Shown: in pieces, positions 400 through 63,904 of the stretch | Position numbering within the stretch: position 1 is the stretch's first letter | Layout: every line of letters begins with the position of its first letter | Virus record (IMG/VR): IMGVR_UViG_3300032229_000798 | Span: 2,199-66,198 of that record | Source of the DNA: a virus | Taxonomy: Duplodnaviria; Caudoviricetes | Strand: one strand, 5' to 3' | Length of the DNA: 64,000 nucleotides | Translations under genes and position numbers: made by a program | The notes under the pieces: generated by a model | Told to the model about the DNA's origin: nothing | Seen by the model: only the letters and a program-made list of their open reading frames with translations | The model's database searches: none

Positions 400-1609
400 G
401 GACATTTTTATTTAACAGCCTTTGTAAATCAAAATTCAAAAGTTTTAACATTTGGTCATCTGGAACTGCCCTCATGCCAGGGTAAGGATGGACGTGACTT
501 GAAACAACTTGACGTAAAACATCAAGAAATTCAATTAATCTGTCTCCATAAGGGACAGGATGTGCTTTATCAGCAAGATTCAAGAAATCGGCATCATCAA
601 CCAAATCAGGTTGTTTTTTAACATTAAACTCTTTATTTAAATGGCTTACCAAAAATATTTTATCTGCTGCCATTAAAGAGGTAGAAAAATTCAAAGTTTT
701 TTGAGTCAACTCCGTCACCTCTGTACTCACATTGGTTGTCTCATTTGAATAAATCTTTGGCAGGCCATTTAAAGAAGAATCAGTGTACACCAATTCCCAA
801 TAAACATAGACATTTTGAAGACCAAGCAATTCAGATTTTAACTGCGCAGTCAATTCACTTTTCGTAGGTTTATTGTAGATTTGAGTGGAAATAATTTTAT
901 TTTTCTCCTTATCTTTTATTTGTATTGTAGCCTTGGTATCTGCCAAAAAAGAGACAATAAACTGTGTCTTTGGGGCGATAAAAACAGGGGCCAACTTTGT
1001 TTTTACAGTTGCCTTTTTTTCAGACTCTACTGGAAACTTTAAAGTAATATAAGCTGGGTTGACCTTGTTAAAGGTTAACGGTTTATCATTTTCATGTGAT
1101 CCTACCCTAAAAAGCAATTGGTTGGCTTTCAAAAATATACTGCTATTATTCCTGCTATTAATAGAAATATCTTCTTTGGAGGCGTACACGCCTTTAGATG
1201 CAGGTATGACAGAAGTTTTTTTCGGAGCCTTTATTGCCCCGTCAGGATAATGTGAATTGCTTTCAAGAGCAAACGGTTGATAATCGACATTGTATATATT
1301 AGAATGAACAACACTTACCCAATACCTCAAATCTTTGGTATTTGAATCAAGGCTGGTATATATGTTCCTGAACATCACCGTGACCCTTTCTCCAACCTTC
1401 GGCAAAGCCCTAAAAAAAGAGAAACTAAAAAGCGGTACGCAAACAGGTAAATCATCATTCGACACTGTTTTATCCAATTCAGGAATCCTGACCTTGATAA
1501 CCCCATTTTCTTCGCCGTCCAACACACTAACAACCTCACCCTCCCAAATGACTTTGGAATAAGGTTTTTCAAATTTACTACTGCCATATTCAGTTCCGAT
1601 TAATCTCAT
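389..1609 (-). CDS. baseplate central spike protein (gp5/gpV/VgrG OB-fold type)
   Basis: N-terminal GEVVSVLD...IKVRIPELD...LPKVGERVTVMF OB-fold signature; C-terminal HVHP (HxH metal-binding spike tip). Confidence 0.7.
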   Translation of the reverse strand: MRLIGTEYGSSKFEKPYSKVIWEGEVVSVLDGEENGVIKVRIPELDKTVSNDDLPVCVPLFSFSFFRALPKVGERVTVMFRNIYTSLDSNTKDLRYWVSVVHSNIYNVDYQPFALESNSHYPDGAIKAPKKTSVIPASKGVYASKEDISINSRNNSSIFLKANQLLFRVGSHENDKPLTFNKVNPAYITLKFPVESEKKATVKTKLAPVFIAPKTQFIVSFLADTKATIQIKDKEKNKIISTQIYNKPTKSELTAQLKSELLGLQNVYVYWELVYTDSSLNGLPKIYSNETTNVSTEVTELTQKTLNFSTSLMAADKIFLVSHLNKEFNVKKQPDLVDDADFLNLADKAHPVPYGDRLIEFLDVLRQVVSSHVHPYPGMRAVPDDQMLKLLNFDLQRLLNKNVLTG

Positions 1610-1615
1610 GTTAAT

Positions 1616-2023
1616 TTATTGAATAATGCCTTTTCCCGTTGCGTAATTAGATGTAACACCTTGACCCACAACAGGCAAAACACCACCAGCAAGGCCTGTT
1701 ACTGTTACAGGAACACCTGGGGGTATAACCACAGTCACTTTTGCGTTTTGTATTATATGTTCGACGACTGTCTCTACAATAGTATATATCATTTTTTCCA
1801 TTATAGATTCCGTGCCATCAGGTAATGGTCCGATTGGAACACCAACTTTTTGACTTTTAATTATTATCTCCTTGGTAATATCTCTTGCAGATAACCCTTT
1901 TTTATTTTCACTGCCAATCAATATAAGGGGAGAAGGGATATTGGGCGGACGACTGCTGCCACCATCCAAAATCGAGTTTAGGAAACTTATGAGGGTTTCT
2001 ATGTTCGTTAAATCTTCGTTCAT
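1616..2023 (-). CDS. hypothetical protein, probably virion structural
   Basis: 135-aa ORF, G/V/P-rich C-terminus, co-oriented with the spike gene. Confidence 0.6.
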   Translation of the reverse strand: MNEDLTNIETLISFLNSILDGGSSRPPNIPSPLILIGSENKKGLSARDITKEIIIKSQKVGVPIGPLPDGTESIMEKMIYTIVETVVEHIIQNAKVTVVIPPGVPVTVTGLAGGVLPVVGQGVTSNYATGKGIIQ

Positions 2024-3333
2024 CTGATAAATCCAGCCAAGGAGGTTATTTGTAAAACATAGAACTTTAATTGTTCCTGTTGCTTTTTTATATTACTTTC
2101 TGCAATCAATTTTGTCAACTCCCTTGTGATAATCGTGACCAAATATCTGACAACTGCACCCAGAATATGGTTTTTTACTATATCGAATATAAAGTTCTTA
2201 TGTTCTTTGAAAAACCCGACAAAGCTGACATCCACATCAACTTTCTTAACCATTTTCCTAAACAACTTTATAAACAAGATTTGTTTGGGTGAAAATAATT
2301 TTAAAGTTATTGACTTGGTTATATTCCTGAAAAACTCCAAGAATATATTATTTTGATAAGAGCCTTTGTCGGACGGCGAAACTGTTGGGGAGGTCTGGTT
2401 TATCAGGTAATCGAAATTGACATTATAAATATCTTCGTTATACTGACTGACATTTACGAGGTCGTCAACAAAACCTTGCAAGAGGTTATAATCGTATTTT
2501 ACATAACTTAATTCACAGTCAACATATTCAAAATAACCTTCTTTCTTTTGTTTGATTCTTCTTTCAATTTCTTCATCGTCGAAGCTATAAAAAGAATCAT
2601 CTACCGTAACATCATCAAATATTTTATCAAGAAGGATGTTAAACTGCTCTCTATTTTTCAATCCCCTTTTTGAAATCGCATTTGAAGCTAAAGAACTTAG
2701 CGTACCAAAAATACCATCGACAAAATCAGAGATAATTGTAACATCATTGAAAAATTGAACTTTGCTGAAATAAGCATTGACAAAATCATAAACAGTTTTT
2801 CCCTGAAAACTTGGGTCCAGTTTTATGTAGAAATTTTGATTGGAATAACTAACCAAAAGAATATCGTTCCAATTATACTCAACACCTGGATTATTGATTG
2901 CCTGATAAAGCAATTTATTCAGGTTGTTTTCATAGTCTTCATAATAAAACTTTCCGAGTTCACTATCGGGGTCAATCTTCAAGACTTCAAAAAAATCAAT
3001 TTCTTTGACACTAAAACTAACTCCTGTAAAAAACTCATCAGATATTTCAACGTCAACAGAACAGAATATATAATCGACAATATTCTGTTTGAAATATGAA
3101 ATCAAATCCGCAGATAAAGACTTTAATTCGGTTAAAAGAAAAAGTTTAAATTCATCTTTAACCTTTTGCCCCCCAAAGAAAATCCTGAATAAATCCAGAG
3201 TAAACTCTAAACTATTCCTCGGTTTAGAAATTGAGGGGAGAGAATTAGTAAACGAGATATTGGTGAAAGCCTCGTTTGTAATCTTCAACCCCTCAATTTT
3301 ACCCAATAAAATTTGTTTGGGGTCAATCGGCAT
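2020..3333 (-). CDS. hypothetical protein
   Basis: 437-aa ORF overlapping its neighbours in an operon-like array. Confidence 0.7.
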   Translation of the reverse strand: MPIDPKQILLGKIEGLKITNEAFTNISFTNSLPSISKPRNSLEFTLDLFRIFFGGQKVKDEFKLFLLTELKSLSADLISYFKQNIVDYIFCSVDVEISDEFFTGVSFSVKEIDFFEVLKIDPDSELGKFYYEDYENNLNKLLYQAINNPGVEYNWNDILLVSYSNQNFYIKLDPSFQGKTVYDFVNAYFSKVQFFNDVTIISDFVDGIFGTLSSLASNAISKRGLKNREQFNILLDKIFDDVTVDDSFYSFDDEEIERRIKQKKEGYFEYVDCELSYVKYDYNLLQGFVDDLVNVSQYNEDIYNVNFDYLINQTSPTVSPSDKGSYQNNIFLEFFRNITKSITLKLFSPKQILFIKLFRKMVKKVDVDVSFVGFFKEHKNFIFDIVKNHILGAVVRYLVTIITRELTKLIAESNIKKQQEQLKFYVLQITSLAGFIR

Positions 3334-3730
3334 TTAAAAGTAGATTGTTTTTCAGTGCTTGTCCTCTCAAGAACTCCAAATCTTTTTCTGTCAAAATTAC
3401 ATCATCCGATGTTTCATTTTCCGAAACATCCTCCACAGCAGTTCTTTGTGACATTATGGTCGTACCATAGAACTTTACCAGTTCGATTTTGAGTTTGTTA
3501 TTGGTGTTGATAATGTCAAGTGCTTTATTGTTAAGAGCGTCCAAAATCTCTGTTTCCTTCAATGTCCTGACAGTATCTTCTTCCCCTTCGACTTGTCGTC
3601 TTTCGGTTATTTCATCTTCTCTTTTACGGATAAATGAAAGTGCCCTTTTTTCCTGACGTTCAAGGTCAATAAAAGTTGTCTGAATTTTTTCTAAAACGCC
3701 GTCCAACGACGCAGGTATTTTGGATTTCAT
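3323..3730 (-). CDS. hypothetical coiled-coil protein
   Basis: 135-aa ORF preceded by the TATTTAT motif. Confidence 0.65.
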   Translation of the reverse strand: MKSKIPASLDGVLEKIQTTFIDLERQEKRALSFIRKREDEITERRQVEGEEDTVRTLKETEILDALNNKALDIINTNNKLKIELVKFYGTTIMSQRTAVEDVSENETSDDVILTEKDLEFLRGQALKNNLLLNAD

Positions 3731-3755
3731 TTTCTTGTTTTTTATTTATAAATAT

Positions 3756-4551: not shown

Positions 4552-5358
4552 TTAACCTTGGGCCTGCTCTTCATAAAGTAATTTACGGTCTTCCGTAAAA
4601 TAATATTCTTTCTTGGCAACATCCTGATAAAAGCGTTGTTCAAGAACTGGAAGAGCGGAATTAATGCTCGAAATGGAACCTTCCCTATTTACAGTATGGC
4701 GAATAATGAAATGTGGAATTACCATAATCTCTGCTTGTTGGTATAATAATCGGAGAAAAAATTCAAATTCAAAATATTTCTTGATACTGTGCTTAAAGCC
4801 GACATTTTTCACGAAAAGATCCGTATTGTAAACAGCGCCGACAAAAGAAGCTGTCATCAAATTTCTTAGGGATTCGAAATCGAAGTACCCTTGTTTTTCT
4901 GTGTAATTCAGATTCCAAACTGCCTCATTACACATACGGACAAAAGATTCACCGTCGAAATCAAGACTGATAGGTATGAATACTGAAACAGATGGATAAG
5001 AGATATTATACCTCTTCACTAGCTCTACATAATTCTCATTCAATACATCATCGTATTGTACAATGCTGAAAAGTTTTGTTTCGATGGAGTGGACGGCGAA
5101 ATTAACAATCTCCGTATAATTTGGCAGAGGGATATTTCGGATTTCCTCTGGGAGGTCAACGAAAGAGATGTTCAAATCATAAATGTTCATATTATTGATT
5201 TGTCCCTTCAAATCCTCAAAGGTGGCAACAAGGATGTTAAAATCATTGTCTTTTTGTTTGGAAAGAGACTCAAACATATTTGTGATATACTTTCGGTCTA
5301 TATCCAAAGCATGAATAGGTACTAATATAGTCAGAAATTCTGAATTTTTATTCTTCAT
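4552..5358 (-). CDS. glycosyltransferase, GT2/GT-A-like
   Basis: LTILVPIH N-terminal strand, QYDD (DxD-like), FEFEFFLRL. Confidence 0.7.
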   Translation of the reverse strand: MKNKNSEFLTILVPIHALDIDRKYITNMFESLSKQKDNDFNILVATFEDLKGQINNMNIYDLNISFVDLPEEIRNIPLPNYTEIVNFAVHSIETKLFSIVQYDDVLNENYVELVKRYNISYPSVSVFIPISLDFDGESFVRMCNEAVWNLNYTEKQGYFDFESLRNLMTASFVGAVYNTDLFVKNVGFKHSIKKYFEFEFFLRLLYQQAEIMVIPHFIIRHTVNREGSISSINSALPVLEQRFYQDVAKKEYYFTEDRKLLYEEQAQG

Positions 5359-6451
5359 CTTGATATTTTTTTATTGTGTTATCAATTTTTGAAATTTTAC
5401 TTTCAAATATTCCACTGAAAGCATTTTTTGTTTGGGTGACAAAATTATCTTCAGTGTAGAGGGTCGGAGTGGCCTGCATACTGTCATAGAGATTTTGTGG
5501 CACATCACCCAAAAGCCAAGCCTCCATAAACTTCGCAATGTAATCTGGTAGACCCAAAACATTTGAAACATAGATTGCATTATCCGCAAGGTTGGCACCC
5601 TGTTCGGTGAAAACCTCTGCCCATTCTGGAATAAGGTCTGGTATCTTCATTATACAAGGGACACCAGAAGCCATTGATTCCAACGGGAATGTTCCGAATG
5701 TAGCAAAATCATCAATCCAAACAGAAAGACAAGTTTCTTTAAGTGCCTCTGCAAAGTCTTCTTTTTTCATACCTCCAAGTGTCCTGAATGTAATCCATGA
5801 ATACATAGGATACTTTTGGTAGAACAATTTAACAGCTCTTTCAAGGTCATCTTGTGATCTTGAGATAATACTTATGATTGGTTTTTGGGGGAATGTGGAC
5901 GGCGAAAAATAAGAGGGGATTGCTGGGTTTACCACAAAAATGTTTTTTACAGGTTGGTATTCCTGCAAGAAAACTTTCATTTTATTAGACGTAGTAATCA
6001 CATTATCCACACCATAATAACTCCAGTTCTCCCCAGCATTCAAGTACTTGAAAATAAAAGAATGCGATTGACAAATAACGACCGTATCAGAAGGGAGCTT
6101 CGTTTCATGTAGTTTTTTGATTAGGTCAGAGAAAAGCTCTGGTACAAAGAAAGTATCAGCACCAGTGATTTTATACTCTGTGTTGTCATTCATCGCGGAA
6201 AGAGGTATATGTTTAAGAGACGAATATCTCTCACCCATCCAAGATTCAACCCCCACGAATTTGTCTTTTTCATGTACTATAATGACAGGATAACCTTCGT
6301 CCTGCATAAGCACCGCCATTTTATATATCTGTTCTACAGACGACATAGGCGCTCCAGCAGTATCGGAAACGAAAAAGAATAATCTACCTTTTTTGTTTTC
6401 GACCGCTGATTTAAGTTCTTCAAGTTTTTGTATTACTTCTTTATTGGTCAT
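5348..6451 (-). CDS. glycosyltransferase, GT4/GT-B-like
   Basis: TFGTFPLESMASGVPCI resembles the GT4 E-x7-E region. Confidence 0.7.
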   Translation of the reverse strand: MTNKEVIQKLEELKSAVENKKGRLFFFVSDTAGAPMSSVEQIYKMAVLMQDEGYPVIIVHEKDKFVGVESWMGERYSSLKHIPLSAMNDNTEYKITGADTFFVPELFSDLIKKLHETKLPSDTVVICQSHSFIFKYLNAGENWSYYGVDNVITTSNKMKVFLQEYQPVKNIFVVNPAIPSYFSPSTFPQKPIISIISRSQDDLERAVKLFYQKYPMYSWITFRTLGGMKKEDFAEALKETCLSVWIDDFATFGTFPLESMASGVPCIMKIPDLIPEWAEVFTEQGANLADNAIYVSNVLGLPDYIAKFMEAWLLGDVPQNLYDSMQATPTLYTEDNFVTQTKNAFSGIFESKISKIDNTIKKYQDEE

Positions 6452-7098: not shown

Positions 7099-8615
7099 GG
7101 CGTAATTAATATGAATTTTTTTAATGCGTTTCTGTATTTTTCAATCTTGGGGCCGAGGACGTTATTAAAATCAGCTTGCAGCCTTTCCAATTGTTTTGGG
7201 TCTTCATTTCTGGTGAGAGATTCATAATGATAACAAACCGCGTCCCCTTGATAGTAATTGATTTTATTTAAGACTGCAATGGATTCGATATTGAGTACGA
7301 CATCTTCAAAGCATTCGGTTGTCTGCTCATTAAACCCTTTCAGTTTTTCAAATTCTGTTTTCTTCATCAAGAGGAATGCCCCTGTGCTACCAACAAAAGT
7401 TCCAGTGAGTTTACTTTTACCAGAGTAGTAACTTTTCAAACCAAAATGTGTGACACCGACAATACCAGCTTTTTTTCCGTAAATAACGATACCCGCGTGT
7501 TGGACCCTGTTATTAGGATACAAAAGTCTGCAACCAACGGTACCACAATGTTTTCTATTCTTTTGGTATGTCGATACCATCAAGTCCAAAGCATTGTTTA
7601 TCAGTTCAATGTCGTTATTGCAGAACAACAAAAGTTCTTGGTCTGAAAAACAATCTTTTATAATATCGTTATTGTTCTTTGCGAAGTTATAATAAGGGAG
7701 TTTATATATCCTTAGTTTTACATTCTCTTTCGATACAGATGAGATGTATTCCCTTAACTCAATCAATGACTGTGAAGAGGAGCCTGTGTCACCTATAACA
7801 ATATCAAGATTTAAAATCGGATTTGTTTTTTCTATAAGGGAAGAGACACATTTTTTTACATAGTCTATTTTGTCTTTAGTAAGAATAACAACACCTATGT
7901 TAGTTGGTTTGAGGTCGACTTTTGGTTGGACGGCGAAATAGGATAAATCAGGTGTACATGATGCTGGCAGATTTTCCCCATATTCCTGCAAGAAAATTGC
8001 TCTGTTGTTATGCCAAGATTGAGTGATTGGGCCGACACTTTTATGATGGACTTTAAAAGCAGTTGTTACGCCAACCTTTACACCATTTAAAAAGTTCTCA
8101 AGGCTAAAGCTCACATCGTAAAAGTGAAATCCTGTTATCTTCTCGTTGAAACGTGCCTTTATCCTGTCTTTTTTCAATGCGATAAAAACGCCGTCCACCA
8201 CACAAACATTCATAACAAAATCATGGTCGTCGGAAAAGAAAGAATCATATTTGATAAGTTTCCCATTATCCATTTTTTCATGTGAAACAATTCCCGCAAG
8301 ATCACCCCTGTTTTCCCACCAAACCCCACTGTTGTTCATACTAGCTGAACCAGCCGCACCAATGATACCGTAGTCAGTTGTTTCAAAAATGTTTATAAGT
8401 TTTTCATCCCAACCATAGGGGAGGACAATATCATCATGTGCAAGAACCAATATTTCGCCGTCCAAACACATATCCAAAGCCTTATTATAACTTTCAGTCA
8501 AAGAATATTGTCCGTCATTAATAAATTCATGTATTCTTACATCAGTTTTACAAGATTTTTTAACCTTATTTTGATATTCTGATGCAGTACTTCGTGTAGA
8601 ATAAAAATAGAGCAT
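7095..8615 (-). CDS. two-domain GT2 glycosyltransferase
   Basis: Domain 1: LAHDDI, VDGVFIA, GFHFYDVSFSL. Domain 2: GDTGS, NFAKNNN, CNNDIE, QHAG, TGAFLL, FEDV, HYES. Confidence 0.85.
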   Translation of the reverse strand: MLYFYSTRSTASEYQNKVKKSCKTDVRIHEFINDGQYSLTESYNKALDMCLDGEILVLAHDDIVLPYGWDEKLINIFETTDYGIIGAAGSASMNNSGVWWENRGDLAGIVSHEKMDNGKLIKYDSFFSDDHDFVMNVCVVDGVFIALKKDRIKARFNEKITGFHFYDVSFSLENFLNGVKVGVTTAFKVHHKSVGPITQSWHNNRAIFLQEYGENLPASCTPDLSYFAVQPKVDLKPTNIGVVILTKDKIDYVKKCVSSLIEKTNPILNLDIVIGDTGSSSQSLIELREYISSVSKENVKLRIYKLPYYNFAKNNNDIIKDCFSDQELLLFCNNDIELINNALDLMVSTYQKNRKHCGTVGCRLLYPNNRVQHAGIVIYGKKAGIVGVTHFGLKSYYSGKSKLTGTFVGSTGAFLLMKKTEFEKLKGFNEQTTECFEDVVLNIESIAVLNKINYYQGDAVCYHYESLTRNEDPKQLERLQADFNNVLGPKIEKYRNALKKFILITP

Positions 8616-8945: not shown

Positions 8946-9530
8946 TTAGAAAAAGTTTTCAAAAGCGTCGAGTACAATGAGGTAAAAAATCAATAGAAAG
9001 ACTGATTCTTTATTCGGCCCGACTTTCTTGATGTTATATAAACTGTTATCAATCAACGCTTTTATCCTGACTGTTTGACTTTTTGTAGAAAACAATTCAA
9101 ACTCCCCAGAAATAAGGTCTGCGAAAAATTCTTTGAACGTATTTTCATATAATGTCAAAAGAAGTTCTTTGGGTGTTATTTTTCTTTCTTCTGCCACAAA
9201 GACTATCAAATGAAAAAGTAAAAGACCGAGAACATCTTTTTTCTCAACTTCAATATCTGTTTTTGTATATTCTGTAAAAATATTCAGTTTCTTGCCAGTG
9301 TAAAAAACAAGAAGGTTTTCGATTTTATTCAATCTATCATCTTGAGAAGCATACTCATACGCTACGCTATTGAAATATTCATAGATTTTATTGAATGTTT
9401 GTTCGATGTCGGGGTGGACGGCGAAATCAGGGGAGTTTGCTGCAAATTCATTCAGATTTTCAAAATACTCCTGCAAAAGAACAGGGTCTGAAATATTTGC
9501 GTTTTTCAAGATTTGATATTCGTAGTTCAT
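8946..9530 (-). CDS. hypothetical protein
   Basis: 194-aa ORF with a 4-nt overlap with the upstream gene. Confidence 0.65.
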   Translation of the reverse strand: MNYEYQILKNANISDPVLLQEYFENLNEFAANSPDFAVHPDIEQTFNKIYEYFNSVAYEYASQDDRLNKIENLLVFYTGKKLNIFTEYTKTDIEVEKKDVLGLLLFHLIVFVAEERKITPKELLLTLYENTFKEFFADLISGEFELFSTKSQTVRIKALIDNSLYNIKKVGPNKESVFLLIFYLIVLDAFENFF

Positions 9531-14970: not shown

Positions 14971-15355
14971 TTTCTGTTAATTTTTTAAATGTGTTTTCTG
15001 TTATCTTTACCCTTGTTGGGTTTTTGTTAGTGTCTTTTCCGTGTGCTTTCAAATATTGATTGCCCAATCCAGCAGCAGTCTTAAACGCTTTATCTTTTTC
15101 AACACGCTTTCTAAGCATATTCAATTGGCCGTCCACCCACCTATAAAATAAATCCCCCCCGTGCATAAGTTTTTCGCCGTCCAACATCGAAGGATAATTC
15201 TTTTTAAAGTTCTTCAGGTCATCGTATTCCAAATATCCACGCTCAATAAAGTTCTTCAATTGCTGTGAAAATTGCCCTTTGGAAACCTCCCGAAGACGTG
15301 GTAAAAGTGCCTTTGGGAATACAACTTTTACCCCTATTAGATTACTGTTAGCCAT
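14954..15355 (-). CDS. hypothetical protein
   Basis: 133-aa ORF directly downstream of the 64-bp repeat. Confidence 0.6.
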   Translation of the reverse strand: MANSNLIGVKVVFPKALLPRLREVSKGQFSQQLKNFIERGYLEYDDLKNFKKNYPSMLDGEKLMHGGDLFYRWVDGQLNMLRKRVEKDKAFKTAAGLGNQYLKAHGKDTNKNPTRVKITENTFKKLTENGILH

Positions 15356-54003: not shown

Positions 54004-55083
54004 TTAGGATGCTATTCCGTAGAGCTTTATTTGCACTGGTTTTGTTACTGTTTTATTATATACCAGTTTTAATATATCACCTCTGTTTATATTGAATGGG
54101 AGGGTGGACGGCGAATTGTTTACAAAATAATCCACGTTATTATCTGTGGTGGATTGGTTGTCGAATTGGACGGCGAAATTGGTGGTCAGCCTATATTCAA
54201 TAGTCGTAGATGACTTTTTGTTTAGGTTGAATGTCAATGATTGGTTGCAATCATTGGAATTGGTTATTTCTTCTATACTGCAAACTTCTGGGGTGGACGG
54301 CGAAAGAGGTTCTGTGGACATTTTTATGTTGTTCACACTGCGCTTTATTTTGAAATCCTTTTCATCGAATATAAAGGCTTTCAGGTTTATCACATAATTG
54401 GTTCTATAAAAGCGTCTCTCTTCTATTTCCTTTTTATTATTCTCCGTAATATCATCCAAAACCAATTCCATATTATGCCCAAAAATGTTGATTGAGTTTT
54501 GGGGTTTTTTGAACTCCTGTAAAATCAATTCATTAAATTTGTTGGTCGTATGGATGTGGTTTGCAAATAAATTGATTTTATATTGCAAGTCCACAAAAGT
54601 CGGTTGGGGGATTTCAATATATTCAAATATTGTTTTTCCATTAACGACTTTAGGGATTCTATATAATGGAAAAGATTCTCCCGAAGGAAGTGTCGAAGAG
54701 AATCCCCCAAGATAAGTTCCTTTTTTTCCAGCGGTTTCTTTCGTCACAGTTATAAGTGGCAGTTTCGGGTGACTGGATTCATCCGTTTGGTTCCACGTCT
54801 GCATAAATTCTGAAAATCTTTGCAGGTTTATTTGGAACACTGGCACCAAAGAACCCTCTACTTCAAACTGCAATGCCTTCACCCACTCGATAAAAGCATT
54901 GTCAAGGTCTTCCAAATGAATTGCCCTTGGAAACAAGGTCTCTCCATCTGTCACCTCTTTCATGCTCATTTCAGTAACCAAGTCGTTGTTTTCAACCAAT
55001 TGTTGGACTGGCAAATCCAACAAATCAGTTGTTTTATTTGCTATTCCAGGTTTTTTAATTATTATTGACTTGGGTGGTTGCAT
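54004..55083 (-). CDS. tail completion / sheath stabiliser-like protein (gp15-like)
   Basis: LEDLDNAF...LPLITV...IPQPTFVDLQYKI; located directly upstream of the sheath gene. Confidence 0.55.
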   Translation of the reverse strand: MQPPKSIIIKKPGIANKTTDLLDLPVQQLVENNDLVTEMSMKEVTDGETLFPRAIHLEDLDNAFIEWVKALQFEVEGSLVPVFQINLQRFSEFMQTWNQTDESSHPKLPLITVTKETAGKKGTYLGGFSSTLPSGESFPLYRIPKVVNGKTIFEYIEIPQPTFVDLQYKINLFANHIHTTNKFNELILQEFKKPQNSINIFGHNMELVLDDITENNKKEIEERRFYRTNYVINLKAFIFDEKDFKIKRSVNNIKMSTEPLSPSTPEVCSIEEITNSNDCNQSLTFNLNKKSSTTIEYRLTTNFAVQFDNQSTTDNNVDYFVNNSPSTLPFNINRGDILKLVYNKTVTKPVQIKLYGIAS

Positions 55084-56115: not shown

Positions 56116-56116
56116 A

Positions 56117-57505
56117 TTAGTGGAATATCGGTTTTGTAATTATGTTGAATTTTACTTGTTCTGGATATGTTTTGACTGTTCCTTTGTTTAATATCTTGAA
56201 ATCAAGCATATATGTTTGAGGAATCATCCAACTCGTATCCAAAAAGAACCAATTTTCACATACACCTCTATTCATCGGCATCCAGTCAATTATTGTTAAT
56301 TCATCGTATGGCCCTTGCTTTATATATATGCGATAATAGATATTATCCACAGCAATTGTCTTGTGGGGGTTGGACGGCGATTTCACATCAATAAAAATTT
56401 TGCGAATATCACCCTGTCTGATAATCTCATCCCTCTTTATCCCCCTGAAACCGAAATTAAAATTTGTTTCTGGGGTCGGTGTATTATAACTGAAATCGTA
56501 ATAGTTTTCAGCAGGGACAAGATTGAATTTAAAAGATTGGTCTGGAAGGCTTTTTCCGTTTATATTAATGTCCGTCCACTTGTCCGTCCAAGCATAACAT
56601 TTTTGAATACTGGCAGAAGGTATTTCAAATTCTATATAATATATCCCCTTGTCTTGACATTGACCTGTTAAAGTAAATTGTAATTGGTTTAGCTCATTAT
56701 ACACCTCTACAACAGGGTCATTATCCAAAGCCACATTTTCGCCGTCCACCCTCGCATACAAATACAACCTGTTAATCTTATCAAGATAGAAATTTGCTCT
56801 ATCATCCATTATAGGATTGACATACTCTGTTTCCAGGAACGGTTCAAAAAATGTTTCAGTTTCCTTTCCAAAGAACACAACGTGATTTTCAATATCAGAA
56901 AATTCTCTTTCGGATTCATAATGGAATGCAAGTCCAAAACCTTCGTTACTTCCACCAGTCAAAAGCATATTGTTTACAATCGTGGTAACATCAAATTCCA
57001 AATCTGGGCTACTGCAACTGATATTTTTGCACATCAGATATTGTGGCGTCTGATACAATGAATCATACACCCCCTCTGTAGCCCAAGTATCTCCGCTCTG
57101 GGCGAAGTACCAGTTGGACGGCGATTTGCTCACAGCACAGTTTAACCTCGCAAAAGAAGTACAAAGTTCTGCACAAGATGTATCCGTTCCGCAACCTTCC
57201 TCCCAAAACTCGTTTATTTTAAAAAGACAGACAGTATAACTTGTCGGCATACAGGCATAAGGTGTCTCATTGAACCCCGCGTGTTTGAATTTCAGTTTGT
57301 GTTTGACATTTGACAAATCCCCCAACTCACAATCCAAAAACTTTTGTTCAAGGTTTTCCAATGGAAATTGAAATAAATATCGAGAAAAGTTTGGTTTATC
57401 TCTGCCTCCACCATAGAATAAATCAATAGTAGGCATACTACCAAAGTTAAACTCTGATTTATACATGATGGTGTTATCTTTGGTAAAGTACGTTCTAAAG
57501 TACAT
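56117..57505 (-). CDS. putative virion structural protein (Cys-rich)
   Basis: 462 aa, beta-rich (FSRYLFQF, WEEG, FDVT, FFEPFLETEY); heads the tail operon; TATTTAT motif upstream. Confidence 0.55.
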   Translation of the reverse strand: MYFRTYFTKDNTIMYKSEFNFGSMPTIDLFYGGGRDKPNFSRYLFQFPLENLEQKFLDCELGDLSNVKHKLKFKHAGFNETPYACMPTSYTVCLFKINEFWEEGCGTDTSCAELCTSFARLNCAVSKSPSNWYFAQSGDTWATEGVYDSLYQTPQYLMCKNISCSSPDLEFDVTTIVNNMLLTGGSNEGFGLAFHYESEREFSDIENHVVFFGKETETFFEPFLETEYVNPIMDDRANFYLDKINRLYLYARVDGENVALDNDPVVEVYNELNQLQFTLTGQCQDKGIYYIEFEIPSASIQKCYAWTDKWTDININGKSLPDQSFKFNLVPAENYYDFSYNTPTPETNFNFGFRGIKRDEIIRQGDIRKIFIDVKSPSNPHKTIAVDNIYYRIYIKQGPYDELTIIDWMPMNRGVCENWFFLDTSWMIPQTYMLDFKILNKGTVKTYPEQVKFNIITKPIFH

Positions 57506-57561
57506 CGAATTTTTTTTTGTTAAAAATAAATATTTTTGTTTTCAGTTTCCGAAATAGTTCT

Positions 57562-57569
57562 TATCTTTG
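57562..57569 (+). promoter_or_regulatory. Bacteroidota -7 promoter element TATCTTTG
   Basis: Lies about 32 nt before ATG 57602. Confidence 0.65.
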
Positions 57570-57601
57570 CAGCACTGTTTAACAATCTAAAACACGGTAA
57601 C

Positions 57602-60600
57602 ATGAAGCAGATAAGTTTATTTACACATATTGACAGAACTTCTTCACCTCAAAAGTCGGTCGGTATCGAAGAAACCCTCGACTTAATCAAGAATCCCAAA
57701 CACAAGGATTTAATTCTTCTAGCCAGATCAGCTGGGAAAACAGCCACCACCGACTTTGAAAATGGCGGTAGGTACTATATTGACTATGACCAGTATAACA
57801 GCGTATTCAGAAATGACTATGTCGTTAAAGAATTGAATGAAATCTTTGACAGTACACTAAACGACATTATTTTTTACAGTGAGAAGTTTGTTCCCTCCGA
57901 AATCAAATCAAGGCTTGATTATTATGGCGTGAAATATTCCAAAATCATCAAGATAGATGACTTTGTGGAATATTTTCAAAACAACACAAATAACAACGCC
58001 TTTATCTCTTTTGTCTGGGGTGGATATGATACCATCAAACAGGAGAAGACCGAACAGAAAGGCAGATTTAAAATCACTGTAAGAAACTTTTACACTTTCA
58101 TCAAATCCACAAAAGTTCCAGTAGTAACATGGAATGCGCAGTTTGAATCCAAACGCGCAATCAAAAACATTGTAAATCTTTCTTCTTACATCTATATGGA
58201 TGTGGATGACTTCGCTGAAACGTCAGAGGACAGGGTTTATAAAATCCTTACAGATAATGGCTTGTCTTTTGTCAAAGCCGTTTGGAAATCTTTCGGTGGA
58301 ACTGGTTTTGGTTTTTTGGTTGAAGTGGACGGCCTTACAATGGATAACTTTAAATGGACGTGGATGTCTATTGCCAAGAAATTCAATGAACTGGGCGTTA
58401 AAGTGGATAAAGCGACTAAAGACATGACACGTATTAATGTCCTGTCTTATGACGAAAACATTTTCATACGTGAAAAATGCAGCCCCCTCGCAGCCACAGA
58501 TTCACTCCCAGAAAATCAGATTGAAATAAAAGTAGAACCCTTGAAAGACGAGGCGAAAATTGAAATCCTCGAACAAGTGGTTTCTGGTCTTTATTACAAC
58601 GACGATAATTTCAACAAAGATGAAGGCAGACTTTCTTACAGGTTCTACCAAATCCTTTTCTCGAAGTTAAACCACATTGGGATAACTTTGGAAGACACTA
58701 TGACATTTTTAAGTCAGAACCACAGTGTCTATCCTGATATTCTCAATAACAAGAAATATAGTATTTATGAAATCGAATATATTGGAAAGAACCAATATAG
58801 CGCCTATTCACATCAATTCGGGACGGTAACGGTTGAAAAGAACCTGCACGTTTCAGATGATTTTATTGTCTTGGGAATATACAAACCCTTCAAAGGCGAC
58901 ATTGACCTGAAACTTAACGACCTTTTTGAAAAGGCCGTCCAAAAAGAATCAGACGCAAAAGCAGTGGTAGTATATTTGGCTTTGATTGCGAAACGTGCTG
59001 GAATATCCGCCAACGATGTGATTTTTTATGTTGAGAAGAAGTATGGATATAACCCAGACGACAAATTCAAAATCAAGAAATTATATTCCAACCCAAAATA
59101 TCCTTTTGGTTTGCAGGTCAAGTTAAAATCAAACATCGCAGAAAAAAGGCGGCAATATTTTATAGAAAAGCTGACCAGCGAAGGAAAGATTGTAAATATT
59201 GTCGATGGAGTTGATGGTGAAAAGTATCTGCCAAATATTGTTAAAAAACATTTTGGTTTCACCAAAGTCACTGACAAGAACGCTACTGGATTATGTCGAA
59301 ATTATTTTAAGGAATGTAACTCTTACAACATCCCCTTATTGGATGCAATAAAGTTTCTTGTAAAAAATTCAGAGTTTCATTCTATTTCTCGATATGCAAA
59401 TCATTACGGAGTAGAAGTTTATGAATCTTACGCCCCCTACGCAGGTATCAATGTGAGCCGACCCGTAGAGGAGAAAAAAAAAATCAACCGCATAGATTAT
59501 CTTCCAGCCAACAAGAAGTTATCTGACCTTGGTTTAGAGATAGAGGACAATACTATTCTTTGGGCTGATACTGGAATGGGTAAGACCACTTGGGCTTGTA
59601 CTCAATCCGATGACAAACGTATTATGCTTGTACCTACTGTGGGAGCATTGAAGAATATCGAAAGCAAGTATGGTGCAGCGACCTACTATGAGGGAAACAA
59701 GAATGTCTGTGCAGATGATTATTTGATTGTCTGCACATATTCTTCTGCACCAAAACTGTTCTCCCTTATTCAAAATTGGGATGGAGGTTTAGGTAATTAT
59801 ACTTTGATTGTAGATGAACAACACAACTTCGCTGTATCTTCTGCAAAGGATTACAGAAACAGTGAGTTAAACTTTGTAATGGACCACATTCACTTCTTTA
59901 AGAAGCGTGTTTTTATGACAGGCACATTGTTCCCTGTCGAACACCCTTCAATCAAGGATTTGAAAATCCACAGGGTGAAATGGGAAGAGCAGACAACAAA
60001 AAATGCTTTTTTTGTTTGGTGTGAAGACAAGTATAAGGCAGTTGAAAAAAATCTTGTCAAAGGTAAAAAGAATATCATTTATCTTCAGGACAAGCGGATG
60101 AACAAACAACTTGGAAAACTGGTTGACTATCTCAAAGGAAAGGGATGGAACTCAATTTATTTGCTTAATGCGAATGAAAAAAATGAACCACACTTCAAGA
60201 GCTTGGTCACGACTGAATACCTTGAAAAAGACGCGGAAGTGGTTATAACTACGTCTGTGACTGTTGAAGCAATCAATATTTTGGATACTGATGTCGAAAC
60301 AGTTCAATTTCTGACATTCGAGAATCCAAGGCTCATGGAGCAGATGGTAAACCGTATGCGCAAAAAATTGCCGTCCAAAATCTTTATTTACAAAAAAACA
60401 AAATCTGACACTGTAAATGACACTATAAATGAAAGTTGGTTTAATCCAGTTTCAAATCAGGTAGATTTGGTTTCCAATGCAGAAAGTTTGCTTGGCTTTT
60501 TATCGAAGCCAAAACAAAAGAAAAATGATACGTATGACACTGTCTCTGCTCAAAAACTGTTTGCCAATCATATTTTTGAGAAGTCTATGCTTTTCAGAGT

Positions 60601-61744
60601 AAAGAGTGATGAATCTGCTTGGGATGTTGATTATCTTTCGATTGCCAATAAAGTCTTTAATGATGAAACCAACTATGCCAAGAACAATCTGGAATATCTT
60701 AAAAGTATTTTGAGTGAATATGGTTGGTCTTTTGGGGAGGATTTGGTGGACGGCGAAAAGTTGACAAAAGAGGAGAAAGATTCTTTTACAGAAAAGAAAA
60801 AGGCTATTGAAGAAGAGATGAAAGAATATTCTTTGAATGTACTGGAGAAGGTTTCTAAAAAGACTTTATCTGAATTAAAACAAGAGGTTGAAAACAAGAC
60901 AGTGTTTGATAATACACAGTACCCAGACATTGAATGGGATGTCAGGATAAAGGTTTTGAAACTTTCAAAGTATATGGAGCATTCCGAAGCCTGTAGAATG
61001 GTTTTGGAACTGATTGATGTACATAACAATTCAGATGAGAAGTTTAATAAAGTCATGCGAGAAATAGCGGTTAAAATTGCAAGGGAAAGCGGTGTATTTG
61101 ATAACAGTATTTCTTTGAATAATAAGTTTTCTCAATCGGTTGTTTCTCTTTATTTTGAGCAAAAGAAGAAAAGTACCAACGGTATTTTGTTTACCAAACA
61201 GGAAATTGTTGAATGGTTTAATAGGAGAAAAAGGTTTAATATTGTTTTGAAGGATTTGGACGGCGAAAAATATGCTATCGAAATTTTCAGCAAATACTTT
61301 GAGATAATTCCAGTTTTGAAGGGCACAGAAGTTCAATTTAAGCTCGGAGGTATTAACTCGATGAACGATGTTTCGGAGTTTACACGGAAGTTTTATGAGT
61401 GGGCAGAGATTTCTGCTGAATGTGAACTTTCATTCAATAGTGATGAATTGGCCAATATATTAAATTCTTTCAGGAAGGACTTGCCTTTTCTATCCAAGTT
61501 CAAGTTGGATAATAAGCAAGCATTAAAACTTCTTGAGGATTATGTTACGGTTAAGAAAACAAGTAAGCGTGAAAACAAGAATGTGAAAACCTGTTACAAA
61601 ATCACTGAACTTGAACCAAAGTTAACTAAAGGATACGAAGTCAAAATTAATCAGGAAGTTAAAAAAAGTGAAACAACCCTTTCGGATTTTAATGATGTCT
61701 TCATCAAACAAATTTTTGAAAAAACTTCTAAAAAATTTAAATAA
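57602..61744 (+). CDS. primase-like (BT4734/VirE-N type) / SF2 helicase fusion protein
   Basis: YIYMDVD, KSFGGTG, DKATKDMTRINVLSYD in the N-terminus; ADTGMGKT, IVDEQH, MTGT, QMVNRMR helicase motifs; start moved to ATG 57602 because the promoter lies within the longer ORF. Confidence 0.7.
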   Translation: MKQISLFTHIDRTSSPQKSVGIEETLDLIKNPKHKDLILLARSAGKTATTDFENGGRYYIDYDQYNSVFRNDYVVKELNEIFDSTLNDIIFYSEKFVPSEIKSRLDYYGVKYSKIIKIDDFVEYFQNNTNNNAFISFVWGGYDTIKQEKTEQKGRFKITVRNFYTFIKSTKVPVVTWNAQFESKRAIKNIVNLSSYIYMDVDDFAETSEDRVYKILTDNGLSFVKAVWKSFGGTGFGFLVEVDGLTMDNFKWTWMSIAKKFNELGVKVDKATKDMTRINVLSYDENIFIREKCSPLAATDSLPENQIEIKVEPLKDEAKIEILEQVVSGLYYNDDNFNKDEGRLSYRFYQILFSKLNHIGITLEDTMTFLSQNHSVYPDILNNKKYSIYEIEYIGKNQYSAYSHQFGTVTVEKNLHVSDDFIVLGIYKPFKGDIDLKLNDLFEKAVQKESDAKAVVVYLALIAKRAGISANDVIFYVEKKYGYNPDDKFKIKKLYSNPKYPFGLQVKLKSNIAEKRRQYFIEKLTSEGKIVNIVDGVDGEKYLPNIVKKHFGFTKVTDKNATGLCRNYFKECNSYNIPLLDAIKFLVKNSEFHSISRYANHYGVEVYESYAPYAGINVSRPVEEKKKINRIDYLPANKKLSDLGLEIEDNTILWADTGMGKTTWACTQSDDKRIMLVPTVGALKNIESKYGAATYYEGNKNVCADDYLIVCTYSSAPKLFSLIQNWDGGLGNYTLIVDEQHNFAVSSAKDYRNSELNFVMDHIHFFKKRVFMTGTLFPVEHPSIKDLKIHRVKWEEQTTKNAFFVWCEDKYKAVEKNLVKGKKNIIYLQDKRMNKQLGKLVDYLKGKGWNSIYLLNANEKNEPHFKSLVTTEYLEKDAEVVITTSVTVEAINILDTDVETVQFLTFENPRLMEQMVNRMRKKLPSKIFIYKKTKSDTVNDTINESWFNPVSNQVDLVSNAESLLGFLSKPKQKKNDTYDTVSAQKLFANHIFEKSMLFRVKSDESAWDVDYLSIANKVFNDETNYAKNNLEYLKSILSEYGWSFGEDLVDGEKLTKEEKDSFTEKKKAIEEEMKEYSLNVLEKVSKKTLSELKQEVENKTVFDNTQYPDIEWDVRIKVLKLSKYMEHSEACRMVLELIDVHNNSDEKFNKVMREIAVKIARESGVFDNSISLNNKFSQSVVSLYFEQKKKSTNGILFTKQEIVEWFNRRKRFNIVLKDLDGEKYAIEIFSKYFEIIPVLKGTEVQFKLGGINSMNDVSEFTRKFYEWAEISAECELSFNSDELANILNSFRKDLPFLSKFKLDNKQALKLLEDYVTVKKTSKRENKNVKTCYKITELEPKLTKGYEVKINQEVKKSETTLSDFNDVFIKQIFEKTSKKFK

Positions 61745-62040: not shown

Positions 62041-63531
62041 ATGGAATTTGTACCGAGCAAATATCAGCAAGATATTTTCGACGTCTGGGAAAAAACAGAC
62101 AAAAATATTTTGGTTAGTGCCGTTGCTGGAAGCGGCAAAACCAAAACGACTTTGGAGTTGATGAAGCGCACACCCGAACATATTAAGGGTATGTACGTCG
62201 CATTCAACAAACATATCGTAAAAGAAATCCAGGAAAAAAATCCGCCGTCCAACTTCATAATCGGAACCCTGCACAGCAGGGGCTATCAAGCCGTTGCAAG
62301 GTCGAGTAGGACGAAATTGAAACTGGATGAATGGAAAAGTTTCTCTTTGATTAAATCCCACATCAAAGAAAACGCTGACATTTGGAAAGACGTACAAAAA
62401 AACAAGATAAATGGTAAAATTGCATCCATTTGTGAGTTTTGGGATTATTATAGGCTCTCCAATCAAAAAGACCTTTCCAATTTCAAATCTCTTGTTGAAA
62501 AGTACAACCTCAATGTTTCTTTTTCAGATATTAAGAAGATTGAAAGCAGTATCAAGGTATTGAATGAATATAATGCCAAGAGAAACAACCACAATCCTTT
62601 TGTGATTGATTTTGTTGACATGATTTATCTTCCAGTCCATTTGAATCTTCATATAGACCAAGTGGATGTTTTGATGATTGATGAAGCACAAGACCTTTCG
62701 GTTATCCAACATGAATTTGTTAAAAAGCTGCTGAAGGAAGGTGGAAGGCAGGTTGTTGTTGGGGATCCACACCAAGCAATCTATAATTTTGGGGGAAGCG
62801 ACATTGAAAGCTGGAACAAATTTTCCGAAATGCCAAACGCCGTCCAACTCCCCCTCTCCTTCTGTTACAGATGTTCAAAAAATATCGTAAATAAAGCAAA
62901 CGCCGTCCACAATATCATGGAATCTCCAGAATGGATGCAAGACGGTGAGATTATAGAAGATGGTAATTTGCTTTACGTTAAATCTGGTGACTTCGTACTT
63001 TGCAGGAATACAAAACCTTTGGTTGAACTGTATTTTACTTTGTTAAACCTTGAAAAACCGTGTTACATTAAAGGAAGCGATATTGGTAATGGATTGATTA
63101 AGGTGTTGGATGAACACAAGAAATTATCAAGTGCCAGCACCTTAACAGAAATGAATAAAGAGCTTAACAAAATCTACAGGGAGCTTATTGCATACGGCGT
63201 CCAACAACCACAAAAAAATCCTAAATATCTCTCTTACAAAGAGAAAATAGATATTGTGAGCCTATTTGCAATGAAATGTAGGACTACATACGAAATCATC
63301 GAAAAGATTAAATCAATTTTTTCGGATGATGGAAAGGGTATAGTTCTTTCGACTATACACAAGGCTAAAGGTCTGGAGGCAGAGGATGTCTATATATATC
63401 TGCCAAGTCTTCTCCCTTCAAAATATGCAGAGACAAAGATTGAATTGGAGCAGGAAGCCAATCTGTTATATGTGGCGATTACAAGGGCGAAGAAAAAATT
63501 AACCTTTGTTAAAAACGAATTTACGTTGTAA
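62041..63531 (+). CDS. UvrD/Rep-like SF1 helicase
   Basis: AVAGSGKT, IDEAQD, VGDPHQAIY, YRC, STIHKAKGLEA, YVAITRAK. Confidence 0.92.
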   Translation: MEFVPSKYQQDIFDVWEKTDKNILVSAVAGSGKTKTTLELMKRTPEHIKGMYVAFNKHIVKEIQEKNPPSNFIIGTLHSRGYQAVARSSRTKLKLDEWKSFSLIKSHIKENADIWKDVQKNKINGKIASICEFWDYYRLSNQKDLSNFKSLVEKYNLNVSFSDIKKIESSIKVLNEYNAKRNNHNPFVIDFVDMIYLPVHLNLHIDQVDVLMIDEAQDLSVIQHEFVKKLLKEGGRQVVVGDPHQAIYNFGGSDIESWNKFSEMPNAVQLPLSFCYRCSKNIVNKANAVHNIMESPEWMQDGEIIEDGNLLYVKSGDFVLCRNTKPLVELYFTLLNLEKPCYIKGSDIGNGLIKVLDEHKKLSSASTLTEMNKELNKIYRELIAYGVQQPQKNPKYLSYKEKIDIVSLFAMKCRTTYEIIEKIKSIFSDDGKGIVLSTIHKAKGLEAEDVYIYLPSLLPSKYAETKIELEQEANLLYVAITRAKKKLTFVKNEFTL

Positions 63532-63532
63532 A

Positions 63533-63582
63533 TAAAAAACTCCCAAAGATAAGATGATTTCTTTTTCTTTGGGGGTTTTTTT
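63533..63582. terminator. bidirectional terminator between convergent genes
   Basis: AAAAAACTCCCAAAGA...TCTTTGGGGGTTTTTT stem. Confidence 0.7.
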
Positions 63583-63904
63583 ATGCTATGTAGGCATTCA
63601 ATTCATAAGTTTCCTTATTATTGTCCATTCTATATATTTGAAAATGAAGTGCTTTATTTTTCACTTTCTCACCATTTTTGAATAAACTTAAAGTTATTCT
63701 GTTTGTTTCTCCTTTCTCTGGTTTTTTTGGTCCTAATCCAATTTTTTCACTCATTTCTTCGCCGTCCAACTCATATCCCCGCTCCTCTGCATATTTTTTA
63801 GCTGCATTAACTGCACTGGTGTAAGAATCATGGTAAAGCGGGTAAGGACTTTTATTATCTTCAGTAATCTTCTTGTAGGTTTCTTCTGTGATTTTTATTT
63901 TCAT
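63581..63904 (-). CDS. hypothetical protein with ITE leader
   Basis: MKIKITEETYKKITED...YELNAYIA; ATG 63904 preferred. Confidence 0.65.
   Translation of the reverse strand: MKIKITEETYKKITEDNKSPYPLYHDSYTSAVNAAKKYAEERGYELDGEEMSEKIGLGPKKPEKGETNRITLSLFKNGEKVKNKALHFQIYRMDNNKETYELNAYIA

Follow-up and report, generated by a model that had tools for sequence, protein, structure and literature searches.

A GC-rich word of nine nucleotides, TGGACGGCG, is written through the genes of an uncultured phage on both DNA strands and is kept there by selection acting on the DNA, not on the proteins. We analyzed the word in a stretch of 64,000 nucleotides (hereafter the window), corresponding to positions 2,199 to 66,198 of the IMG/VR virus record IMGVR_UViG_3300032229_000798, a contig of 66,198 bases. 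Exact matching revealed 47 copies in the window (27 on the plus strand and 20 on the minus strand, all at the positions given in the original prediction, which had been made from the letters alone), where 0.06 were expected, and 49 copies in the whole contig. The constrained core comprises approximately 14 nucleotides (nt), is strand-specific and is under strong purifying selection; judged from sequence comparisons, TGGACGGCG behaves like a protein recognition site.

The expected number was derived from 100 dinucleotide-preserving shuffles of the window (mean 0.06, maximum 1), and the excess of approximately 800-fold confirmed the strong enrichment claimed for a genome estimated at about one-third GC (35% throughout the window). 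The word occurs 0.74 times per kb in this contig and 0.47–0.49 times per kb in relatives. Counts of 8- to 12-mers showed that every top word of the contig either is TGGACGGCG or overlaps it; the next unrelated 9-mers were A/T-rich and present in no more than 19 copies each, and no other GC-rich 9-mer was frequent. As had been predicted, TGGACGGCG is non-palindromic, differing from its own reverse complement, and lacks strand bias (27 vs. 20, P = 0.38). The extended consensus (G/T)TGGACGGCGAA(A/T) was reproduced, and so were nine one-mismatch copies, those on the minus strand lying one base further left than initially placed; eight additional ones brought the total to 17.

Such a pattern might in principle arise from codon or peptide usage or from faulty assembly, and a codon-aware null model had been set beforehand as a refuting test. 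Shuffling of synonymous codons within genes left 1.58 +/- 1.14 copies (maximum 5, 300 shuffles) and shuffling of codon order 0.13 copies against the 49 observed, so that the enrichment stayed. The word is placed in four frames and on both strands. It was also found in independently assembled contigs of several metagenomes, as well as in Logan contigs from 4 other runs (4 studies) covering the same stretch; therefore, it is no assembly artefact. No evidence supporting either origin was found, and the frame, codon-shuffle and site-conservation results refute them, leaving a practically negligible probability.

The copies in the window are given below, with positions from exact matching, peptides from frame reading, and gene context from our own greedy calls of open reading frames (ORFs). 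Orthologous copies come from the comparison of orthologues (loci L002, L006 and L008) and the single polymorphism from the comparison of strains.

1513..1521, minus strand: copy in gene 389-1609, sense, xTG GAC GGC Gxx = LDGE
3697..3705, minus strand: copy, sense, LDGV
5090..5098, plus strand: copy, antisense to gene 4552-5358, FAVH
5896..5904, plus strand: copy, antisense, SPST
7927..7935, plus strand: copy, antisense, FAVQ
8189..8197, minus strand: copy, sense, VDGV
8456..8464, minus strand: copy, sense, LDGE
9415..9423, plus strand: copy, antisense, FAVH
12596..12604, minus strand: copy, sense, LDGV; orthologous place kept in L002, L006 and L008
13315..13323, plus strand: copy, antisense, IAVQ
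15175..15183, minus strand: copy, sense, LDGE
16157..16165, plus strand: copy, sense, LDGE
16238..16246, plus strand: copy, sense, LDGD; orthologous copy in L002, L006 and L008
19439..19447, plus strand: copy in the family B DNA polymerase (PolB) gene, sense, LDGE
20558..20566, plus strand: copy in the PolB gene, sense, VDGG; orthologous copy in L002
20591..20599, minus strand: copy in the PolB gene, antisense, SPST
22439..22447, plus strand: copy in the PolB gene, sense, MDGD; orthologous copy in L006 and L008
23595..23603, minus strand: copy, sense, LDGE
23989..23997, plus strand: copy, sense, VDGE; orthologous copy in L002
26420..26428, plus strand: copy, antisense, NAVQ
31933..31941, minus strand: copy in the DnaB-like helicase gene, sense, xxT GGA CGG CGx = IGRR; orthologous copy in L008
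32199..32207, plus strand: copy, antisense, FAVQ
36307..36315, plus strand: copy, antisense, NAVQ
37634..37642, minus strand: copy, sense, GGRR
39671..39679, plus strand: copy, antisense, SAVQ
41133..41141, minus strand: copy, sense, LDGE
41343..41351, plus strand: copy, antisense, TPST
41930..41938, plus strand: copy, antisense, SAVQ
44633..44641, plus strand: copy, antisense, SPST
45508..45516, plus strand: copy, antisense, FAVQ; polymorphic, G>T at 45513 in strain G411 and run X4
48361..48369, minus strand: copy, sense, VDGE
48595..48603, minus strand: copy, sense, VDGE
48961..48969, minus strand: intergenic copy beside the tail-tube gene, covered by a 46-amino-acid ORF only and situated in a hairpin
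49258..49266, plus strand: copy in the tail-tube gene, antisense, APST
51848..51856, minus strand: copy in the sheath gene, sense, VDGV
54105..54113, plus strand: copy, antisense, SPST
54167..54175, plus strand: copy, antisense, FAVQ
54294..54302, plus strand: copy, antisense, SPST
56371..56379, plus strand: copy, antisense, SPSN
56740..56748, minus strand: copy, sense, VDGE
57115..57123, plus strand: copy, antisense, SPSN
60747..60755, plus strand: copy, sense, VDGE
61257..61265, plus strand: copy, sense, LDGE
62243..62251, minus strand: copy in the UvrD-like helicase gene, antisense, PPSN
62838..62846, minus strand: copy, antisense, NAVQ
62901..62909, minus strand: copy, antisense, NAVH
63760..63768, minus strand: copy, sense, LDGE

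Among the 49 contig copies, 48 lie inside ORFs of at least 100 amino acids, and the remaining one is the intergenic copy beside the tail-tube gene. Of the six possible frames, four are used by the sense (24) and antisense (25) copies: xTG GAC GGC Gxx in 21 copies, giving (L/V/M)DG(E/V/D/G); xxC GCC GTC CAx in 14, giving xAV(Q/H); xCG CCG TCC Axx in 11, giving peptides of the SPS(T/N) type; and xxT GGA CGG CGx in 3, giving xGRR. Peptides compatible with the word occur 63 times in the contig vs. 12.6 expected from residue shuffles, i.e., approximately five times too frequently. Forty-nine of these 63 sites bear TGGACGGCG, and the remaining 14 approximate the number expected by chance; two relatives displayed the same pattern (89 and 46 compatible sites, 61 and 33 of them with the word). 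Since the excess of peptides corresponds to the word-bearing sites, TGGACGGCG dictates amino acids instead of exploiting existing ones. Genes carry it wherever LDGE, AVQ, SPST or GRR is acceptable in the protein. Its orientation is unrelated to transcription (79 sense vs. 64 antisense, P = 0.24, among 143 in-gene copies). The only copy of the window outside a real gene sits in a GTGCTG...CAGCAC hairpin with a T run behind it (48925-48990, minus strand), downstream of the tail-tube gene.

The anatomy of the site was established on the same 143 in-gene copies, pooled from three contigs. The full site reads K-TGGACGGCG-AAAT and follows a G/T-rich 5' flank of roughly 20 nt. On the word's strand, 62–74% of the 20 nt upstream are G or T, and in the last 10 nt before the word G accounts for 35–38% and C for 7–8%. 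G stands at position −2 in 70% of copies and either G or T at position −1, while A predominates at positions +1 to +3 and T at position +4; these preferences are alike in sense and antisense copies. One-mismatch variants occurred at approximately the background level except for those at position 9 (8/17, 7/17 and 2/9), which retain the flanks. Between two contigs of 78% identity, positions −1 and +1 to +4 were 93–100% identical vs. a background of 0.78, positions −12 to −2 were 79–93% identical, and the background was reached beyond approximately 40 nt.

Comparison of orthologous sites, proposed originally as a check, showed that the copies are kept far above ordinary 9-mers. In the pair of contigs of 78% nucleotide identity (G001 and G002), 27 of 33 and 28 of 32 sites were intact, whereas only 15.6% of all aligned 9-mers were fully conserved (binomial P ~1e-16 and ~1e-18). 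Similarly, between this contig and G411, derived from the same metagenome and 97% identical, 24 of 25 sites were intact in each direction, with 2 substitutions within sites vs. 6.9 expected (P = 0.03). One of these, the G>T change of G411 at window position 45513, recurs in a contig of another study, X4 (among the 40 of 764 differences listed). Two deep lineages with 50–65% protein identity share approximately one-third of their sites at orthologous codons (1–4 of 5–12 per locus), and the remaining sites were gained or lost along with the surrounding amino acids.

TGGACGGCG is invariant in one clade, comprising lineages of 30% and 35% GC, and is absent outside it. All 16 loci of close relatives carry the identical word and none of the 22 loci of distant relatives does, some of these loci being pieces of the same contigs. 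With PolB as the probe, the word was present in 8 of 8 viral loci with a 65–99% identical enzyme (4–16 copies each) and in 0 of 8 with a 33–40% identical one. A phage protein of 1402 amino acids divided the loci in the same manner: 8 of 8 with a homolog at least 56% identical bear the word (0.47–0.89 per kb), and 0 of 10 with a homolog 30–42% identical do so. Whole contigs of relatives of 72, 136, 47, 34, 40 and 45 kb contained 34, 67, 19, 13, 28 and 42 copies, respectively, and none of them had a single copy of the reversed control word. No copies of TGGACGGCG were detected in contigs of distant relatives of 78, 110, 40, 37, 17, 184 and 61 kb, and no alternative dispersed word was seen in the word-less relatives. 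Two 14-mer scans of viral contigs provided at least 227 loci. Among the matches listed, 13 low-GC loci had at least 2 copies; 12 were members of this clade and the remaining one (2 copies in 12.5 kb) had weak protein matches only, and no clearly unrelated word-dense phage appeared.

When both strands were pooled, the spacing of copies was near random and strands did not alternate (neither test was significant). Gaps within a strand were more even than random, with coefficients of variation (CV) of 0.56–0.75 vs. 0.95. In G002 the CV values were 0.72 (P = 0.021) and 0.69 (P = 0.031), in G000 0.72 (P = 0.051) and 0.75 (P = 0.14), and in G001, which is not independent of G002, 0.64 and 0.61; G411 showed no evenness effect. 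Fisher's method applied to the four strand series of G002 and G000 gave P = 0.002, and the strongest figure (P = 0.0004) requires post hoc dropping of the first 10 kb of G002. Evenness per strand is thus a mild effect. The gaps on one strand amount to 2.2–4.8 kb, and G002 carries 2–7 sites per 10 kb along 126 kb.

The beginning of G002 has its own peculiarity. Eight copies at 540-8881 (L152), all in frame 0 (W-T-A), fall in a repeated peptide ..GWTAQFHN(S/A)LGNSN.. within three giant plus-strand ORFs (986, 1620 and 1319 amino acids). These copies spread by domain duplication, hence the plus-strand count is inflated there. Between two of the giant ORFs (7890-7944) lie copies in opposite orientations (7890 on the plus strand; 7918 and 7936 on the minus strand); those at 7890 and 7918, 19 nt apart, can pair as a hairpin, which recalls uptake sequences in terminators.

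Judging from its genes, the source of the window is an uncultured T4-like jumbo myovirus of freshwater metagenomes, about a fifth of which is covered by the contig. The phage origin assumed initially was substantiated by the tail sheath, tail tube, PolB and class I ribonucleotide reductase (RNR) genes; the window also encodes a 3'-5' exonuclease, dUTPase, DnaB-like helicase, FEN, RecA/UvsX-like recombinase, UvrD-like helicase, a BT4734-like_N protein and several glycosyltransferases (five glycosyltransferase domains in the phage). Genes for a major capsid protein and a portal, both of the T4 type, and for a Rad50-like ATPase were found on the 136-kb contig of the relative G002. CheckV estimated the completeness of this contig at 21% and of the 136-kb contig at 41%, which implies a genome of roughly 320 kb and makes the window a fragment of it. 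No cultured close relative was found, PolB matching only Salinibacter phages at 23–28%, and megablast of 22 kb gave no match. Near-identical sequence is present in Logan contigs from 20 runs of 10 studies, labelled mostly as freshwater or lake metagenomes. Freshwater Bacteroidetes jumbo phages of similar size and GC, with bS21, located beside the capsid and portal genes, as a marker gene, are described in PMC9723584. Since bS21 (PF01165) was not found in five contigs of the group (all fragments, G002 with its capsid and portal genes included), we did not file the phage with the bS21-encoding Bacteroidetes jumbo phages of that source. The genes of the window that matter for the function of the word are the following.

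18781..22884, plus strand: family B DNA polymerase (domain match), used to find relatives
32583..33602, minus strand: 5'-3' exonuclease / FEN (domain match)
33592..34674, minus strand: RecA/UvsX-like recombinase (domain match)
34770..35762, minus strand: 330-amino-acid putative SSB-like protein with an acidic DDDLPF tail (sequence), found in the word-bearing clade only in the comparison
57536..61744, plus strand: 1402-amino-acid protein, BT4734-like_N (primase-type) domain plus SF2 helicase (domain match), candidate reader
62041..63531, plus strand: UvrD/PcrA-like SF1 helicase, 496 amino acids (domain match and comparison), candidate reader

Among the functions considered for TGGACGGCG, we rank first, tentatively, that of a Chi-like signal for DNA end processing and recombination. 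A helicase-nuclease moving from a free end would meet a correctly oriented copy within a few kb and would switch there from degradation to making a 3' tail, on which a recombinase would load; in this manner the phage genome would be protected and recombination-dependent replication fed. If the T4-like genome is, as we assume, packaged by the headful and circularly permuted, its ends could fall anywhere, and copies would be needed everywhere and in both orientations. The reader might be a host enzyme of the AddAB/RecBCD type or a phage-encoded one. This possibility was put first because the density of the word and its status as the commonest k-mer match those of Chi-rich phages, of which LLS and P1 carry one Chi per 1.86–1.90 kb as their commonest octamer (PMC12315714). 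Further reasons are the asymmetric G-rich word, its G/T-rich 5' side and the evenness per strand, as well as the T4-like recombination machinery (RecA/UvsX-like, FEN, Rad50-like and SSB-like genes) and the probably permuted ends; the T4-type capsid and portal genes fit this role, too. The 3' tail would form from the side bearing the G/T-rich 5' flank, and RecA prefers GT-rich DNA.

Several observations speak against a Chi-like function. No large-scale switch of orientation was found along 136 kb of G002; this weighs little, as none is expected for a permuted genome. Divergence around the sites was flat at long range, with no asymmetry. Known Chi sites have 5–8 nt, and we know of no Chi as long as the ~14 nt site described here. 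The word is identical in lineages that differ in GC (30% and 35%) and probably also in their hosts, so a host-specific Chi fits less easily, which leans toward a phage-encoded reader. No reader was found; none of four clade-specific genes discussed below could be tied to the word. The search for a word-bearing host covered 401 Bacteroidota genomes sampled evenly across the phylum and 5 metagenome-assembled genomes (MAGs) with the nearest RNR; none of these 406 came near the phage word density, and the extended word occurred in the five most enriched genomes in 3–10 copies, approximately the share expected by chance. According to PMC12315714, the Chi-rich phages bear the known Chi of their host, oriented to one genome end, and lack recombination genes of their own, whereas this phage has a RecA-like gene and others, and its word is longer, without an orientation pattern or a word-bearing host found. 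A private, phage-encoded system, in which a phage protein reads a 14-nt strand-specific self-word missing from the host chromosome, appears rather improbable to us. It would tell own DNA from host DNA, the marked DNA being spared or recombined and the unmarked DNA degraded. If true, it would be a phage-owned analogue of Chi dictating 3–4 amino acids at hundreds of places in a ~320 kb genome.

Instead of guiding end processing, the word may be a priming or helicase-loading site read on the single-stranded template by a phage primase-helicase, for which the 1402-amino-acid protein (BT4734_N plus SF2) is the candidate; we consider this rather unlikely as well. Lagging-strand primers would start at the word, so each strand would need a copy every few kb, and the mildly even gaps per strand are in line with that. 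The BT4734-like_N domain was recognized with E = 6.9e-9, and ResIII/DEAD, PriCT_2 and Herpes_ori_bp are present in Atlas neighbours of the protein. No primase of the DnaG type was seen in the available genome parts, and primers beginning with A would be templated on the opposite strand by the A-rich 3' flank. Primases of the archaeo-eukaryotic type do read template words, e.g., that of NrS-1, which recognizes TTTGGTTA and GTG(A/G) (PMC8718748). However, none of the 10 loci with 30–42% identical homologs of the 1402-amino-acid protein carries this or another dispersed word; therefore, the family can do without a long word. Known primase words effectively span 3–5 nt vs. the ~14 nt constrained here, and starting Okazaki fragments hardly seems worth altered amino acids at 49 places. 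GP55 of phage 1706 is reportedly another primase of the archaeo-eukaryotic type. Programmed single-strand nicks introduced into packaged DNA by a phage nickase, as in T5, phiKMV-like and tf/LUZ24-like phages, are a poorer prospect still. Nick motifs, too, are asymmetric words of 7–19 nt kept within a phage lineage, exemplified by TACTRTGMC at 14 sites in the 46 kb of phage tf, but the sites of tf, T5 and phiKMV-like phages are all on one strand and the T5 nicks are dispensable (PMC3517423). Here, 27 copies are on the plus strand and 20 on the minus strand, the density is several times higher, conservation is strong, and no HNH or GIY-YIG nuclease was found among the scanned proteins.

The word may also serve another DNA transaction, as the site of a genome-organizing or packaging protein or as the target of sequence-specific base or sugar modification, to which we ascribe a comparably low probability. 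The many, fairly evenly distributed sites along G002, the glycosyltransferase genes of the phage, and the nucleotide-pool genes of G002 (dGTP diphosphohydrolase-like, HD) would agree with such roles. On the other hand, the DNA methyltransferase families PF01555, PF00145 and PF02086 were not found in five word-bearing contigs (covering no more than 41% of a genome), avoidance instead of accumulation is usual for modification targets, and evenness per strand instead of pooled evenness points to an orientation-sensitive reader. Finally, the phage may passively carry or mimic a host word, such as an uptake sequence of the DUS (DNA uptake sequence) or USS (uptake signal sequence) type, or another word of a competent host, but this is highly improbable. 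The phage density of 0.5–0.75 per kb resembles that of USS and DUS in their hosts, and the intergenic inverted pair of G002 and the one terminator-like hairpin copy in the window fit this origin. Nevertheless, no such genome was present among the 406 Bacteroidota genomes, 48 of the 49 copies lie within ORFs of at least 100 amino acids, and 12 of the 13 low-GC multi-copy loci (among the matches listed) belong to this clade. Of the interpretations offered in the original prediction, selection at the DNA level and a site behaving like one recognized by a protein were upheld, and mimicry of the host was left without support in the genomes searched.

Candidates for the reader protein were sought by gene comparison between the word-bearing contigs and 491 kb of sequence of six word-less relatives (excluding the 17-kb contig). 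Four sizeable genes of DNA metabolism were confined to the word-bearing clade: the UvrD-like helicase, its 467-amino-acid neighbour, the 330-amino-acid SSB-like protein and a 184-amino-acid protein. As all compared contigs are fragments, the absence of a gene is weak evidence. The UvrD-like helicase is encoded in both word-bearing lineages and was not found in the 491 kb of word-less relatives. It belongs to a very common family (4,869 representatives at E <=1e-30), and its test for co-variation with the word was negative: of 80 homolog loci, the 78 from outside the clade all lack a dispersed word. The top words at four of these loci that were inspected were tandem repeats or promoter-like palindromes. 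The 1402-amino-acid protein, with no sequence match in PDB, likewise gave a negative co-variation test, its 30–42% identical homologs residing in phages without a dispersed word. For the 467-amino-acid protein, encoded beyond the window end, neither a Pfam family nor an informative Atlas neighbour was found. The 184-amino-acid protein (32036-32590), encoded between the DnaB-like helicase and FEN, gave a model with pLDDT 66 and no Foldseek match in PDB. The 330-amino-acid protein had no Pfam family, a chance-level PDB hit only (E = 0.14) and 20 homolog clusters, none with a recorded Pfam family; its DDDLPF tail, like that of bacterial SSB, suggests an SSB.

A Bacteroidota host is plausible, given that the RNR is 58–64% identical to those of MAGs of Chitinophagales, Saprospiraceae and other groups and that the BT4734_N domain is typical of Bacteroidota among Atlas rows. 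The highest bacterial count of TGGACGGCG was 255 copies in 4.5 Mb (~1 per 18 kb), with 116 copies of the reversed control word in the same genome; the most skewed genome had 32 copies vs. 2 of the control, dispersed over 3.9 Mb. In many low-GC Bacteroidota, the word was rarer than the reversed control (0 vs. 48, 0 vs. 50, and 1 vs. 22 in a Ferruginibacter MAG). Because the control is unmatched for codons and CpG, this rarity was not counted as avoidance and may reflect codon and CpG usage only.

Other features of these genomes were noticed on the way. The RNR genes of the window (27133-30554) are only 25–27% identical to those of the closest word-bearing relatives, hence of a different type, and closer to those of distant phages (42–64%) and of the Chitinophagales/Saprospiraceae MAGs (58–64%); the region looks like a gene replacement. 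The segment 55088-56051 is replaced by 359 other letters in contigs X4 and X7 of two other studies, and the ORFs 55084-55704 and 55708-56115 have no homolog in relatives, which marks it as a variable cassette. In G002 (L152, 13703-17155), genes for a dATP/dGTP diphosphohydrolase-like protein, an RlaP-type nucleotidyltransferase and an HD-domain protein stand together, which hints at manipulation of the nucleotide pool or bases; a GMP-reductase/IMPDH-like gene is present in both lineages. G002 (L157, 15985-17265) also carries a TnpB (IS605 OrfB / Cas12f-like) gene. An unrelated phage locus, L384, displays an intergenic palindrome-like element with a TTTTAATTAAAA core and conserved flanks in at least 14 places, probably a promoter family.

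In the open papers searched, no description of TGGACGGCG as a genomic signal was found: among the matches listed, those to the letters of the 9-mer and its complement were primers or constructs only, and nothing on Bacteroidetes Chi or jumbo-phage motifs described it. Identifying the protein that reads the word would uncover either the Chi of a host from the Bacteroidota or a novel DNA-marking mechanism encoded by phages. Already now, TGGACGGCG can be used as a simple in silico marker for binning fragments of this clade.

Compared with known systems, TGGACGGCG resembles the Chi sites of the Chi-rich phages LLS, P1 and Pseudomonas phage MD8 (Zheng et al. 2025, PMC12315714) in being an asymmetric G-rich word and the commonest k-mer, present approximately once per 1.4–2 kb, mostly inside genes, and interpreted as the product of selection at the DNA level. 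In NrS-1 (PMC8718748), a primase-type protein reads a template word, and this phage likewise encodes a protein whose N-terminal domain is of the primase type, but the NrS-1 word reduces to GTG(A/G) and relatives of our candidate occur in word-less phages. The nick motifs (PMC3517423) are lineage-specific asymmetric words of similar length (9 nt in tf) and obscure purpose, but they lie on one strand in 4–14 sites per genome, in contrast to 49 copies per 66 kb on both strands here. KOPS/FtsK-type polar words have a strong replichore orientation skew, not seen here, and HIP1-type words are palindromic, unlike TGGACGGCG. Uptake sequences (Neisseria DUS, Pasteurellaceae USS) are similar in density, in the use of several frames and both strands, and in some terminator hairpins, but they are chromosomal words of competent bacteria, and no bacterial genome dense in TGGACGGCG was found among those searched. 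The GCCGTC noted originally as shared with Neisseria DUS is indeed present, but the likeness is limited to that hexamer, and to our knowledge TGGACGGCG matches no DUS or USS dialect. Chi, uptake sequences and KOPS are genome-wide words central to the handling of cellular DNA, while the words of phages have so far been mainly borrowed host Chi or a few nick sites. This case differs in that selection on the word is measurable and overrides the protein sequence, with no host counterpart found in the genomes searched, and that a widespread group of uncultured lake jumbo phages keeps an invariant word of its own at a density like that of uptake sequences.

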